From Octopus vulgaris (Eukaryota), in NCBI GenBank assembly GCA_951406725.2, contig OX597823.1:10974001-11038000 (forward strand): a stretch of 64,000 nucleotides of DNA, read 5' to 3'. Below, one piece after another: positions 12,611-36,219 of this stretch; within the stretch, counting starts at the first letter, position 1, and each line of letters begins with the position of its first letter. Both the position numbers and the translations under genes were made by a program. A model generated the notes under the pieces. That model worked only from the letters and a program-made list of their open reading frames with translations. It made no database searches and was not told where the DNA came from.

Positions 12611-12780
12611 GGCGTAGGAGTGGCTGTGTGGTAAGTAGCTTGCTTACGAACCACAAGGTTCCGGGTTCAGTCCCACTGCGTGGCACCTTGGGCAAGTGTC
12701 TTCTTCTATAGCCTCGGGCCGACCAAAGCCTTGTGAGTGGATTTGGTAGACGGAAACTGAAAGAAGCCCGTCGTATATAT
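12611..12780 (+). mobile_element. tRNA-derived SINE, family A (5' half)
   Basis: GGCGTAGGAGTGGCTGTGTGGTAAG (A box), GGTTCAGTCCC (B box), then GGCACCTTGGGCAAGTGTC core. Confidence 0.9.
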
Positions 12781-12829
12781 GCATATACATATGTATATAT
12801 ATGTTTATATATGTTATGATGTGAACATA

Positions 12830-13555: not shown

Positions 13556-14392
13556 TAGAGTGACGCCAAAATAGAGGTGATTTTTAGCATGGTAGCTGAA
13601 GCAAGCAAGGAATATTGTAGCATCTACAGAGCACAATTTGTGACTCTATTATATCTGAGAGTGTTAATCTTCTCAGGCGTTACTAGAGTTAACGAGTTTA
13701 GAGAAAATTAATTGAAATTCAACACAAGTGGATCTAACAACCTTGTATTCGTTGACACGACAGTACTGATTGCAAATTTAATTATTTCGGTAATTTCATA
13801 ATTTCCGTGAAATCTAACTTTGATGGTCATCTAAATTCGATGGTTCCTTGCCTAGGGCAACTTGCTGCTTCAAGAAGGGCGCCATACTTAAGACACTTCA
13901 GCTACACAAGCGATACTTCAGAAAATGTAAAAGTTGAGATGTGCGTTTTATTACAGAATGCTTCAAAGAAGAAATAGGACAAGTCGAATTTGTTTGGCGA
14001 CCAAATTCCTTTGAATTATACTTGCCATCTTGCATTATGTAGTTTTAGATAGTATATATATATATATGAATAAAATATATTTAGGATCAAAGATACCCCG
14101 CTCGTGATAGATAGACTGGACTAGATTCTGCCTTACTTGTTGACCTAAAGGTCAACAAATCAAAATAGGAACAGAAATGTATTCAAATATTAGTATTAAC
14201 CATAAAACAGCAAATGGTGGTGAAAGATGTTCTTTATTTCTGCAGAGTTGAGATCACGCTACGGTACATTGAGTTTACATTTTTCTAATGACCATTTAAA
14301 TAACTGCAAGTAATATACGGAGACAATCTAGTTATTACATTATTTACATTATTTACAATTGACATATATTTGTCCTCATCTTGTTTGCTGTT

Positions 14393-14438
14393 AACACAAC
14401 GTTTCGGTTGATACACCCTTCAGCCTTCATCAGGTGTC
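14393..14438 (-). ncRNA. Minimal type I hammerhead ribozyme
   Basis: Minus strand GACAC-CTGATGA-A-GGCTGA...TCAACC-GAAAC-GTT-GTGTT. Confidence 0.7.
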
Positions 14439-14536
14439 TTAGGGAAATTTCTAACCTGGGTTCTCATTCCTAAGGTATTTTTCAATGTTTTTATTATTAT
14501 TGTTATTATTATTATTATTATTATTCATTATTATTA

Positions 14537-14605
<69 letters not shown>

Positions 14606-14644
14606 TCACTGCCTGGAATTGAACTCGGAATCTTGGGTTAGTGA

Positions 14645-14700
<56 letters not shown>

Positions 14701-14760
14701 GTAATAACATCGAAAAATACCTTAAGAATGAGAACCCAGATTCGAAATTCCCCCCCCCAA

Positions 14761-14806
14761 GACACCTGATGAAGGCCGGAGGGTATATCAGCCGAAACGT
14801 TGTGTT
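14761..14806 (+). ncRNA. Minimal type I hammerhead ribozyme
   Basis: GACAC-CTGATGA-A-GGCCGG...TCAGCC-GAAAC-GTT-GTGTT: stem I GACAC/GTGTT, full core, palindromic ACGT stem III. Confidence 0.7.
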
Positions 14807-15820
14807 AACAAAAATCAAGATGAGGAAAAATATCCGTCAAATGTAAATAATGTAAATAATGTACATAATTCCTCATCTCTTAAATAAGGAACTGTATTAT
14901 CTAATTATTACATTACAAAACTGTTGTCGTGTACCTGCCAATATGTAACATCATTATTGGTTCCTACCTAGTATAACAAAATCGGTTGGGCGTCGTTTAT
15001 AGCGTTTTCTGTTACAATTCAAGAAAGTAAGGATCTAAACGAAGGTGCATACGGCTGGCAATTGATACGCGGCATTATCCAGTTTAGAAGGGAACTTCTA
15101 AAATGGATAAAAATTTTATGAGTCTAATAGGGGTGCTAGATAAAATAAGTGCTGCTTGGGTGCAAATTGTGTATCTTCTAACAAATAGAGAATATGGGGT
15201 GTCAGATTAAAGAAAAAAAATGCTACCAGCTGTGAACTCAAACTATCAACTTTATGATGTTTAGTGCCTCATATAGAAAGAATTGTCGTGTAGTAGATAT
15301 CAAAAATGGACAACATCATGGATATTTTTACAAAGATAGCAAACTTCATTGGAGCAGGAGGTCTGAACGACAAGCAGTCAAGCTGCTTTTTGGAAGGAAG
15401 TCTTGATCATAAACTGCCGTATCACACCGGCATTTGATCGTTAAATCGGAGTTTTAAAAGGTGGTATACCTCATTTGGAGCATGCAGTTTTGAACTGCAG
15501 ACAGTTTCAATGCTTTTTGGAAGAAAATCATAACCATAGACTGCTGTATTTCATCGATATTCACTGGTTGGATCAGAGGTAGTTTTGAAGCAGTCTTTTA
15601 TGCACTTCAGTGTAAAATACACATATTCATGAAATACAAACGAAGGGTTGTGTAGGAACTGAAAGGCATTGGATAGGTTCAAGACTGAAATATTCTAGGG
15701 CTTGTGTATCTACACTATATTTGACCAGCCAAAGCTTATGCGTATGGCACCCTGCTGTAGGGACATGGCCAGTGCCTTATGTTATACAGCTAAGTTATTG
15801 TATATGTGTGTATACATATG

Positions 15821-33244: not shown

Positions 33245-34000
33245 AGAAGATATGTTGCAATACGTACAGAAGCGACGAGAGGGGGCCTCCTTGACCGACC
33301 GAACGCGTGATGCTAAATGGTCTGCATAGATAACCATTTACGCGAACTACCGAGCGGATGCCGCGGTATAGGGCAACCATCCAACCACGGAAGATGGGAC
33401 CAAAACCAGCCGCACTAAGGACAGACTCCAAGTAGCAATGGTCGACCCTACCGAAAGATTTCGATTGATCCAAATTGATCAGCGCCCCACCCATGCTAGG
33501 TTCCTTACTACCCTGTCAATGATGTAGCGCATCTGATGGAGGTTGTCATGGATACTCCTGCCCGGCACGGCGCATGTTTGCGCATGTCGACCAGTTTCTT
33601 GATGACAAGCGCCAACCTCTTGGCTAGCACTTTAGCCAAAATCTTGAAATCTGCGTTGAGCAGAGTAATGGGCCTGAGGTTATCTATGACGTTCCCCTTG
33701 TTTGGATCTTTCTTTAGCAGTGCCATTGCTCCTCGCTTTACAAAGACGGGGATACCCCCGTTTTGCTGCCAGTTGCAGTAGACAGCTGCCAAGACGCCTC
33801 CAAACAAGCGTGGCATATGTTCGTAGGGCAGACCTGGCATAAAGTTCGTAGGGCAGACCATTCGAGCCTAGTGACTTGTCTCTCGCGCAGCCTGCCATCG
33901 CATCCCGTACATCTGCGGCTGTGATGGTTCTTTCACAACACTCTACCTCTCTTGCTAAGAGTCGTGGCAGGCCATGCAGGTAGGCACTAAAGTCTGCCCT
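33245..34000 (-). mobile_element. Tx1/L1 reverse transcriptase fragment
   Basis: LLKKDPNKGNVIDNLRPITLLNADFKILAKVLAKRL; LINLDQSKSFGRVDH; RSVGQGGPLSSLLYVL; frameshifted. Confidence 0.9.
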
Positions 34001-34715
34001 ATGTGAAAGGCCTCTCCGAAAAGATACAAAAGATATGCGGCCCATATGACATCAGGACAGTATTCAAGAGTAATACAACACTTCGCAAATATCTCCTCTG
34101 AGTAAAACCACCAATAGAAGAGAATATGGCCAAAGACTACGTGTACTCCATCCCATGTAGCTGTGGTAGGTTATACAAAGGCGAAACATGCCGCCCCTTC
34201 AAAATAAGGGTAGAGGAACATCGCAAAGCTGTGACACGAGGAGACGTTGATAAATCGGGTACAACTGATCATGTATGGAAAAATGGAAACCACCTCCTCC
34301 TGTGGGATGAAGTTAAAGTAATAGACAGAGAACATCACTGGAAAATACGAAAACTAAAGGAAACAGCACATACGCTAGAACACAACAACCTCCTAAATAG
34401 ACAGAGCGCAGATATGAATAACATATGGGAACCGGTATTAAGGAGGGATAGGAAAATATTAGATTTATAAGCCCTAAAATACACTCCACAATTGCCCACG
34501 GGCATATGACGTAGTGGTTAAGAGCGCGGGCTCTTATTGCGTAGTGGTTAAGAGCGCGGGCTCTTATTGCGTAGTGGTTAAGAGCGCGGACTACTAACCC
34601 CAAGATTCCGAGTTCGATTCCAGGCAGTGACCTGAATAATAATAATAATAATAATAATAACAATAATAATAACAATAACAATAATAATAATAACAATAAT
34701 AATAATAATAATAAC

Positions 34716-34759
<44 letters not shown>

Positions 34760-34860
34760 TAATAATTATGATGATCATAATGATGAAGGCTAGAAAAGTT
34801 GTGTTAAAAAACAAGATGAGGACAAATATCCGCCAAATGTAAATAATGTAAATAACGATC
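34000..34860 (+). mobile_element. Penelope-like element 3' part: GIY-YIG endonuclease, tRNA-like segment, (TAA)n and a hammerhead remnant
   Basis: ORF 34126-34470 reads VYSIPCSCGRLYKGETCRPFKIRVEEH...RKLKE...LNR. The downstream terminus matches 14640-14865. Confidence 0.88.
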
Positions 34861-34935: not shown

Positions 34936-36219
34936 CGAGGTGGTATCAAAAAGTTCCCGGACTAGTTATGCTTAATAAAAATAACTTATTTATCTAAGTT
35001 TTAACATCATTCGAAATAGAGACCTTGCGCAGCAAAACATCGGTCCCAGTGTTCATGCCACTTTTGGAATCCGCTCTGGGAGTCGTTTTCCATAATCAAG
35101 TCGAGGATCTTCTGTGGTTCGCTCTGGAACTCAACAACGGTTTTAAAACGGCGATCTTTCAGCTGCATTTTCATCTTGAGGAAGAGATGGAAGTCCGCAA
35201 TAGCTAAATCTGGCGAATGGAAGCACTCCGTCGGTTACGACGACGAGGGTTCCAGTTGATCCGAATCAACGGAACAGCCTGCTCGTGAAATTAACGTGTA
35301 AGTGGCTGAGCACTCCACAGACACGTGTACCCTTAACGTAGTTCTCGGGGATATTCAGCGTGACACAGAGAGTGACAAGGCCGGCCCTTTGAAATACAGG
35401 TACAACAGAAACAGGAAGTAAGAGTGAGAGAAAGTTGTGGTGAAAGGGTACAGCAGGGATCACCACCATCCCCTGCCGGAGCCTCGTGGAGCTTTAGGTG
35501 TTTTCGCTCAATAAACACTCACAACGCCCGGTCTGGGAATCGAAACCGCGATCCTATGACCGCGAGTCCGCTGCCCTAACCACTGGGCCATTGCGCCTCC
35601 ACATCTGGCGAATAGGGAAGGTGCGGAAGCGATACCATGTTCTTTTTGGCGAGAAACTCACGACTGAGGAGAGCTCGGTGACGGGTTGCATTGTGGTCCT
35701 AAAAATCCAATTCTCCCCGCTCTACAGATCCGGTCCTCGCTCAAACGCTTCAAAATTTCGCAGGAGAACTCTCAATTGACAGTCAGGCCCTGGAGTATGA
35801 ATTCTCGATGCATAATATTACATTTCCGGGGGGTGACGCTCGTGGGAAGTCTTCCAGGGACGTTATTCCACTTATGAAGCGCCCGTGTCACTCAAAATAT
35901 TGCGTACGACTCATCGCCGCGTCGCCGTAAGCTTGCTGAAGCATGCTCAATCTTTCCGTAGCAGACTTCCCGAGTTTAGCGCATAATTTCACGCTGACAT
36001 TTTGTCCCTGTCCATGACTACATCGCAGACTACAACACACACGCGATTGCAAAAACACAGATTTCACAGCTTGTGAAGTAAAAGCAGCAATGTCACCCGG
36101 CACACTGCGTCACACTGCGTCATAAAGGTCACTCCTAGTTCTCACTGAGCGCGCACCCATGTGCTGCCATCTATTAGCGCGCTACAGAACTAGTCCGAGA
36201 GCTTTTTGATACAACCTCG
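34936..36219 (-). mobile_element. Mariner element with both TIRs, internally deleted, carrying a nested SINE
   Basis: TIRs CGAGGTGGTATCAAAAAGTTCCCGGACTAGT and ACTAGTCCGAGAGCTTTTTGATACAACCTCG|TA. HTH region VKLCAKLGKSATERLSMLQQAYGDAAMSRTQYFE. Confidence 0.88.
35219..35602 (-). mobile_element. tRNA-derived SINE, family B, with an 11-bp TSD
   Basis: TSD ATCTGGCGAAT at 35208-35218 and 35603-35613. Confidence 0.93.

Follow-up and report, generated by a model that had tools for sequence, protein, structure and literature searches.

A tRNA-like head in the terminal repeats of an octopus Penelope-type element and its likely use as a Pol III promoter

In Octopus vulgaris, one Penelope-like element (PLE) family carries a tRNA-like head as a fixed part of its terminal repeats (pLTRs). 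The sequence evidence suggests that this head probably acts as a Pol III promoter, since insertions begin sharply at a 5′ position whose spacing to the A box is the one expected, and runs of four T residues (T4), the Pol III terminators, are scarce in the family. The window, that is, the whole 64,000-nt stretch of DNA that was analysed (contig OX597823.1, positions 10,974,001 to 11,038,000), contains at 33992–34856 one copy that is the broken, 5′-truncated 3′ end of a Penelope/Poseidon-type element. Its GIY-YIG-type frame closes with the stop codon TAA at 34468–34470 and is followed, as a first-pass annotation of the sequence had described, by a tRNA-like head, a (TAA)n array, a broken hammerhead and a tail (Table 1).

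Table 1. Coordinates of PLE features in the window.
Feature	Position	Strand	Basis
Penelope/Poseidon-type ORF 3′ end, 5′-truncated: end of thumb region and GIY-YIG endonuclease	33992..34470	+	homology
Linker of 29 nt between stop and head	34471..34499	+	sequence
Hairpin TGCCC-AC-GGGCA; inferred RNA 5′ end; fold-back junction in many short copies	34493..34504	+	
tRNA-like head	34500..34632	+	colinear with the genome's own tRNAs
(TAA/CAA)n array, length variable, separating head from ORF start	34635..34766	+	sequence
Minimal type I hammerhead remnant, broken	34781..34805	+	intact form: L032 and 14766
pLTR 3′ end, reaching the first of two 3′ end sites in the family	34806..~34856	+	
pLTR-only arm: B-box half of head, (TAA)n, ORF start, intact hammerhead core, short 3′ end	14339..14642	-	
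Second arm of head-to-head insertion: hammerhead and long tail	14640..14894	+	

The ORF fragment of this copy is interrupted by one in-frame stop near 34100, and a TTTATAA at 34464–34470 lies about 30 nt 5′ of the head. The linker, identical in length and sequence among ORF-anchored copies, ends with the 5′ arm of a short hairpin. Within the head, a 30-nt A-box unit is triplicated in the window copy only, a feature absent from the first-pass annotation: A boxes lie at 34507, 34537 and 34567, with TAGTGG at 34512, 34542 and 34572. The B box, GTTCGATTC, spans 34612–34621, and GGCAGTGACC (34623–34632) ends the head. Missing from the hammerhead remnant are C3, the stem I 5′ arm and the greater part of stem II, and the segment with the family's ATG is also deleted from this region. 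The truncated PLE is adjoined head-to-head by a LINE reverse transcriptase fragment on the minus strand (33250–33990; weak RVT_1 match, E=0.006), which has a small internal duplication near 33826–33859. Two further tRNA-derived SINE-like repeats in the window, at 12612–12790 (+) and 35410–35602 (-), are unlike the PLE head.

The first-pass annotation had also drawn on a recurrence of the module at 14.33–14.86 kb, with intact ribozymes, for assigning the tRNA-like part to the family. The same module is indeed present there, as a pair of arms with intact hammerhead cores at 14433 (minus) and 14766 (plus), each with one mismatch in stem II, but the A box is missing: what remains of the head is its B-box half on the minus arm and, on the plus arm, a few bases. 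A 17-nt near-duplication (14326–14342 and 14899–14915, one mismatch) flanks the pair. Lacking an A box, this locus alone does not prove the linkage; genome-wide counts do so.

A search of the 2.8-Gb genome (227 contigs) with the window's endonuclease fragment gave 5,016 first-look candidates, 150 of which were scored, all at E<1e-57, and 30 retrieved. At least half of the head stood directly after the stop in 26 of the 29 other GIY-YIG copies retrieved, and both halves in 17; the downstream module was present in 25 of the 29 and a hammerhead match in 22. Starting from the head itself (the first 30 of 152 exact matches), the downstream module lay at most 1.1 kb away in 26/30 loci. Exact matches across the genome numbered 152 for a 54-nt head pattern and 5,559 for a 24-nt hammerhead pattern; these are not chance matches, because the reversed control patterns gave none. 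Four further runs were examined, and among the contigs listed for three of them (labels B, D and E) some bridge the ORF end and the head. The linkage counts, which the first-pass annotation had proposed, bear out its claim that the tRNA-like part is a fixed family component and not a chance SINE insertion, as does the absence of any duplication around the head and TAA run in the family majority sequence. The head is embedded in an autonomous element, and target duplications flank whole pLTR insertions rather than the head.

In six of 30 loci retrieved with the 5′ part of the ORF (L105, L109, L116, L117, L125 and L126), the module is found upstream of the ORF and shares its direction; that of L109 is present from the head onward, and L128 carries the module at both ends. 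Since full-length copies thus have the module upstream of the ORF as well, the head-containing module is the pLTR. We infer that an old tRNA-derived SINE probably supplied the head, which was captured together with its TAA tail in the space separating the ORF's stop from the following ATG. The family's (TAA)n arrays have themselves received insertions: in L008 (downstream of the ORF, oriented 1950–2450; seen in translation) the array is interrupted by a LINE that carries a restriction-like endonuclease sequence, and L046 and L047 contain DNA similar to this LINE at the same place. Dong/R4 elements target TAA repeats. Such a LINE insertion within the array accounts for some heads lacking the hammerhead module.

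The unit is 2.65 kb long, and its pLTR comprises the head, (TAA)n, the ATG, a minimal hammerhead within the first codons and two 3′ end sites. A majority sequence built from copies, which diverge from it by 5.4% on average, holds one open frame of 835 codons that starts just past the TAA array and includes a YVDD motif. A natural protein of 847 aa from another source (P0001) is 56% identical to this frame over 829 aa, and because the alignment, beginning at residue 11, runs through the hammerhead-encoded residues, the ORF start is fixed independently. In Pfam, P0001 matched RVT_1 (5.7e-11) and, weakly, GIY-YIG (E=0.23); the window's 122-aa fragment and the L002 frame returned no Pfam match. 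All 30 loci retrieved with P0001 from the same genome belong to the head-bearing family, with no sister family among them. As in EN+ Penelope-like elements, a single ORF encodes a reverse transcriptase (RT) together with a GIY-YIG domain at the C-terminus, the pLTRs are direct repeats containing a minimal hammerhead motif, and copies are inverted and 5′-truncated, with an optional tail at one end. A Penelope/Poseidon-type assignment is suggested by the order of domains, by motifs and by a layout like that of the anole element Poseidon_Ac (PAc). In the first ORF codons of the majority sequence, a 9-nt repeat near the first 3′ end site expands and contracts with the reading frame preserved, and a second B-box-like word, GGTTCGAAATTTCC, stands directly past the ATG.

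The head is colinear with the genome's own tRNAs, the best being tRNA-Arg(TCG) with 49/76 columns (z 7.9 versus shuffles), in a comparison set of 35 distinct tRNA sequences that covers only 10 isotype/anticodon classes. In the family majority sequence the A box falls at +8 and the B box at +53, so that the head is tRNA-related with both boxes, as in tRNA-derived SINEs. It does not fold as a cloverleaf: ARAGORN called no tRNA in the window and only a mis-folded one in the majority head at the 70% threshold, and Rfam gave no tRNA or hammerhead match for the window or family sequences. Among copies, the A box is no better conserved than its neighbours (0.936 versus 0.938; B box, 0.962), which is expected under neutral decay and adds no support. 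An A/B-box pattern was found in none of 24 related PLE 3′ regions with at least 150 bases past the endonuclease, nine of which contained a hammerhead-like motif. A side observation concerning genuine tRNA genes is a cluster of several tRNA-Cys genes within 3 kb at L144.

To read insertion ends we used 87 insertions from the first 100 listed of the 5,559 hammerhead matches (27 of 30 returned loci, three being dropped as the second arm of an insertion already counted, plus 60 fetched), a sample that represents the first 53 Mb of one chromosome and requires the exact hammerhead 24-mer. Start positions, read from the longest arm in local alignments, carry an uncertainty of a few bases. Sixty of the 87 reach the head and 45 the head's 5′ zone. 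Relative to where the tRNA-like body starts, 14 insertions begin beyond -25, in the ORF or linker, four at -25 to -8, 27 at -7 to +5, 11 at +6 to +20, and four deeper in the head; the others begin at the TAA boundary (16) or past it (11). The 13-nt zone from -7 to +5 thus holds 27 of the 45 starts, at 0.061 starts per nt, against 0.0012 at +21 to +75 and 0.0015 at -125 to -26, an excess of about 40-fold over either side. Most insertions (73/87) stop short of the ORF and are pLTR-only; the 14 that do extend into the ORF or linker indicate that longer templates exist. A random 200-kb sample contributed five sites with eight arms, too few for a start histogram. Extrapolating from the 5,559 exact 24-mers at 5.4% divergence, we estimate roughly 20,000 hammerhead-bearing arms genome-wide.

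The insertions are of PLE type in other respects. Arms are arranged head-to-head in 54/87, and the 3′ ends of 134/142 arms fall at two sites ~25–30 nt apart. A single target duplication surrounds such a pair: among the two-armed insertions, 27/46 share at least eight flank bases, and the long tail is usually on one arm only; shared flanks with a one-arm tail are the signature reported for PLE insertions (PMC8557442). Unlike the tandem head-to-tail arrays of hammerhead monomers typical of non-LTR retrozymes and SM-alpha, the 87 loci are mostly single or head-to-head.

Many start-zone junctions are fold-backs on the short hairpin, and these allow the template end to be placed. An RT running along a longer RNA would have had a longer and more stable hairpin at its disposal, formed with the native arm (-5.3 versus -2.6 kcal/mol). 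Even so, the first 100 of 298 junction matches comprised 32 short-arm fold-backs and none on the long arm, alongside 67 native ORF-linked junctions and one ambiguous case. The lack of fold-backs on the more stable arm implies that the templates did not extend past about -7, and points to template ends at about -6/-7, that is, 13–14 nt before the A box. A tRNA-type Pol III start would be expected at a distance in this range. Cutting of the RNase P type at +1 was rejected as a source of the 5′ ends, as many copies retain native sequence upstream of that position.

In the 2.65-kb majority unit, no TTTT run at all occurs on the sense strand. Taken alone, this depletion of plain T4 is modest: its absence has P=0.003 under a base shuffle, 0.03 under a synonymous-codon shuffle and 0.07 and 0.22 under Markov models of order 1 and 2, and G4 is absent from the unit too. 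When near-T4 sites are included, none is observed against 3.8 expected under synonymous-codon shuffling (P=0.008), and the G/C analogues are not depleted. Real long copies (n=30) carry 23 T4 in 53.6 kb, or 0.43 per kb, compared with 185 in 56.0 kb, or 3.3 per kb, in 42 coding stretches of other PLEs, the latter being those of 80 related metagenome-contig loci with ~770 or more coding bases and representing single, possibly decayed copies. The density in the head-bearing family is hence about eight-fold lower, and about four-fold lower than in the controls of matched T content (T≤0.23; 48 T4 in 28.0 kb). Nine of ten control stretches of at least 1.5 kb have at least one T4 and one has none; a second PLE family of the same genome has six to seven per ORF in six copies. 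Judged from these comparisons, both the head and the terminator scarcity look specific to the head-bearing family.

The main rival to a Pol III promoter is a Pol II-like one: the head would be the relic of an old SINE insertion in the pLTR, its A and B boxes unused, with transcription supplied by read-through or by an internal Pol II promoter that coincidentally starts there. Any internal promoter, Pol II included, would yield a sharp 5′ end, the T4 statistics are modest by themselves, and an ORF has to be translated, which is hard from uncapped RNA. The known PLE promoter, that of Drosophila virilis Penelope, is moreover internal, TATA-less and of Pol II type in the available description (PMC2377424). 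Coincidence would then have to explain why a consensus A box follows the start zone at 13–14 nt, and a B box that also fits the consensus comes 45 nt later, and why the real copies are so much poorer in T4 than other PLEs; we consider this reading unlikely. Less probable still is that the 5′ end is an artefact of reverse transcription, in which the RNA is longer but the RT stalls at the hairpin and folds back, and no promoter is needed there. The hairpin does sit exactly at the start zone, fold-back junctions are common, and inverted 5′ arms are a general PLE trait (PMC8557442). Against this stand the junction counts, in which the long arm is used in none of the first 100 matches, the fact that most starts in the zone have no fold-back of 6 nt or more, and the scarcity of T4, which the artefact leaves unexplained.

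A further alternative concerns the origin of the short copies. They could form an independent SINE lineage with Pol III-driven sources that use the PLE protein in trans, the coding RNA having another origin. The Pol III step is common to this view and our best explanation, and the difference lies in where the short copies come from. The 73 insertions that do not reach the ORF agree with it, as do the presence of ORF sequence upstream in only two of 30 head-anchored loci and the retention of both boxes in many short copies. However, in two sets of copies that were picked differently and are not comparable, no variant setting short copies apart from ORF-linked ones was seen, and one non-CpG head variant was shared. 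Full-length RNA with internal RT initiation would also give the same product (PMC11167929, in the text available), and a T4-free ORF would find no explanation, so that we give an independent lineage little credence. The suggestion in the first-pass annotation that the PLE might spawn SINE-like derivatives holds insofar as most insertions are pLTR-only; a separate SINE lineage is not needed, since internal RT initiation on the element's own RNA yields such copies.

Our best explanation, which we consider likely, is that the head serves as a Pol III promoter. A bolder and less probable reading goes beyond the promoter itself: the family may be an autonomous protein-coding retrotransposon whose whole 2.65-kb unit, including the 835-codon ORF, is transcribed by Pol III from a captured tRNA-derived promoter, with Pol III terminators purged from the coding strand, an uncapped RNA translated, and pLTR-only copies serving as ready-made SINEs that need the Penelope enzyme. 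In our best explanation, Pol III would start ~6–7 nt before the tRNA-like body, 13–14 nt before the A box, and, without T4 on the sense strand, could read through the entire unit. The element's RT would then begin inside the RNA at the tail sites, for which anole Poseidon offers an in vitro precedent. Initiation at the 5′ pLTR would produce short copies, and at the 3′ pLTR ORF-bearing, mostly 5′-truncated copies like that of the window. On reaching the RNA 5′ end, the cDNA may fold back on the small hairpin or jump, and the second, inverted arm would result. Templates could come from Pol III and the mRNA from Pol II read-through.

RNA reads from three runs of one study (organism B, ~6% each) showed no start site at the head of L133. 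Depth on this locus was equal in both orientations and climbed towards the pLTR, as copy number does; the reads look unstranded and carried in host transcripts, and as such uninformative on Pol III. An excess of A>G and T>C changes was considered as a sign of RNA editing and rejected, the excess being found in contig runs as well.

Conventionally, autonomous retrotransposons are assigned Pol II promoters or read-through, and a Pol III promoter is the mark of a non-coding SINE. The closest described relative in layout is PAc of the green anole, which, in the accessible text of its report, shares the pLTR-ORF-pLTR order, an RT with a C-terminal GIY-YIG domain, a hammerhead at the ORF start, two RT start sites with the resulting optional tail, and AT-rich targets (PMC11167929). 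That text describes no tRNA-like head or Pol III promoter for PAc, whereas the octopus family has the head, and its ATG precedes the hammerhead, behind the (TAA)n array and the tRNA-like head. According to the same portion of the report, the RT of anole Poseidon starts internally in vitro at two sites that define the tail, and the hammerhead overlaps the ORF start. The D. virilis element likewise has an internal pLTR promoter with a defined start, but it is described there as TATA-less and LINE-like with Inr/DPE elements (PMC2377424, in part), where the octopus family has a tRNA-like sequence with A and B boxes.

The octopus hammerhead resembles the minimal forms of metazoan PLE pLTRs, which are of type I without loop 3, with a 5-bp helix I and an unpaired base before helix II, and of which many occur singly or as opposite-strand pairs 100–700 bp apart (PMC4209133, in the sections available). 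A term search of that study's text found no mention of tRNA or Pol III. Minimal-type hammerheads are described in the accessible parts of PMC4209133 and PMC11167929 as weak, dimer-dependent or protein-assisted. By analogy, the family's ribozyme would be expected to act weakly or with the help of a protein; in the window copy it is dead.

Known octopus tRNA-derived SINEs are OK, OR1 and OR2, and the SM-alpha repeats of schistosomes carry a Pol III promoter. With these the family shares a tRNA-related head with A and B boxes, a simple-repeat stretch and a high copy number; unlike them, it has its head fixed within the terminal repeat of an autonomous element, its 3′ part is PLE sequence, and its insertions show PLE-type tails and inversions. 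The parallel to SM-alpha that the first-pass annotation drew is a loose one; SM-alpha is described as a SINE-like family with a type I hammerhead (PMC8490949). Non-LTR retrozymes are likewise short, hammerhead-bearing and related to PLE pLTRs, but in the accessible portions of their descriptions they form tandem arrays (bioRxiv 10.64898/2026.07.22.740005; PMC7229834), whereas the octopus copies are dispersed, mostly single or head-to-head, and have the tRNA-like head. Searches of an open-access library yielded no PLE with a tRNA-derived or Pol III promoter; an entry for the family's repeat, as SINE or PLE, may already exist in the sources outside that scope, namely subscription papers, Repbase, Dfam, SINEBase and the supplements and repeat library of PMC13282606.

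If our best explanation is true, the swapping of a tRNA-derived promoter into a Penelope element would blur the divide between Pol II-driven autonomous elements and Pol III-driven SINEs, and would offer one route for the birth of a SINE from inside its partner element. It would also become possible to test how an RNA that lacks a cap and has a hammerhead in the first codons is translated. For annotation, tens of thousands of SINE-looking copies are the pLTRs of one PLE family.

The second PLE family of the same genome (L309–L316) is young, with 96–99% protein identity among copies and ~29% to the head-bearing family. It has open frames of up to ~900 codons, a long poly-T after the stop and a microsatellite-rich UTR, and is presumably Neptune-like, judging by a motif.
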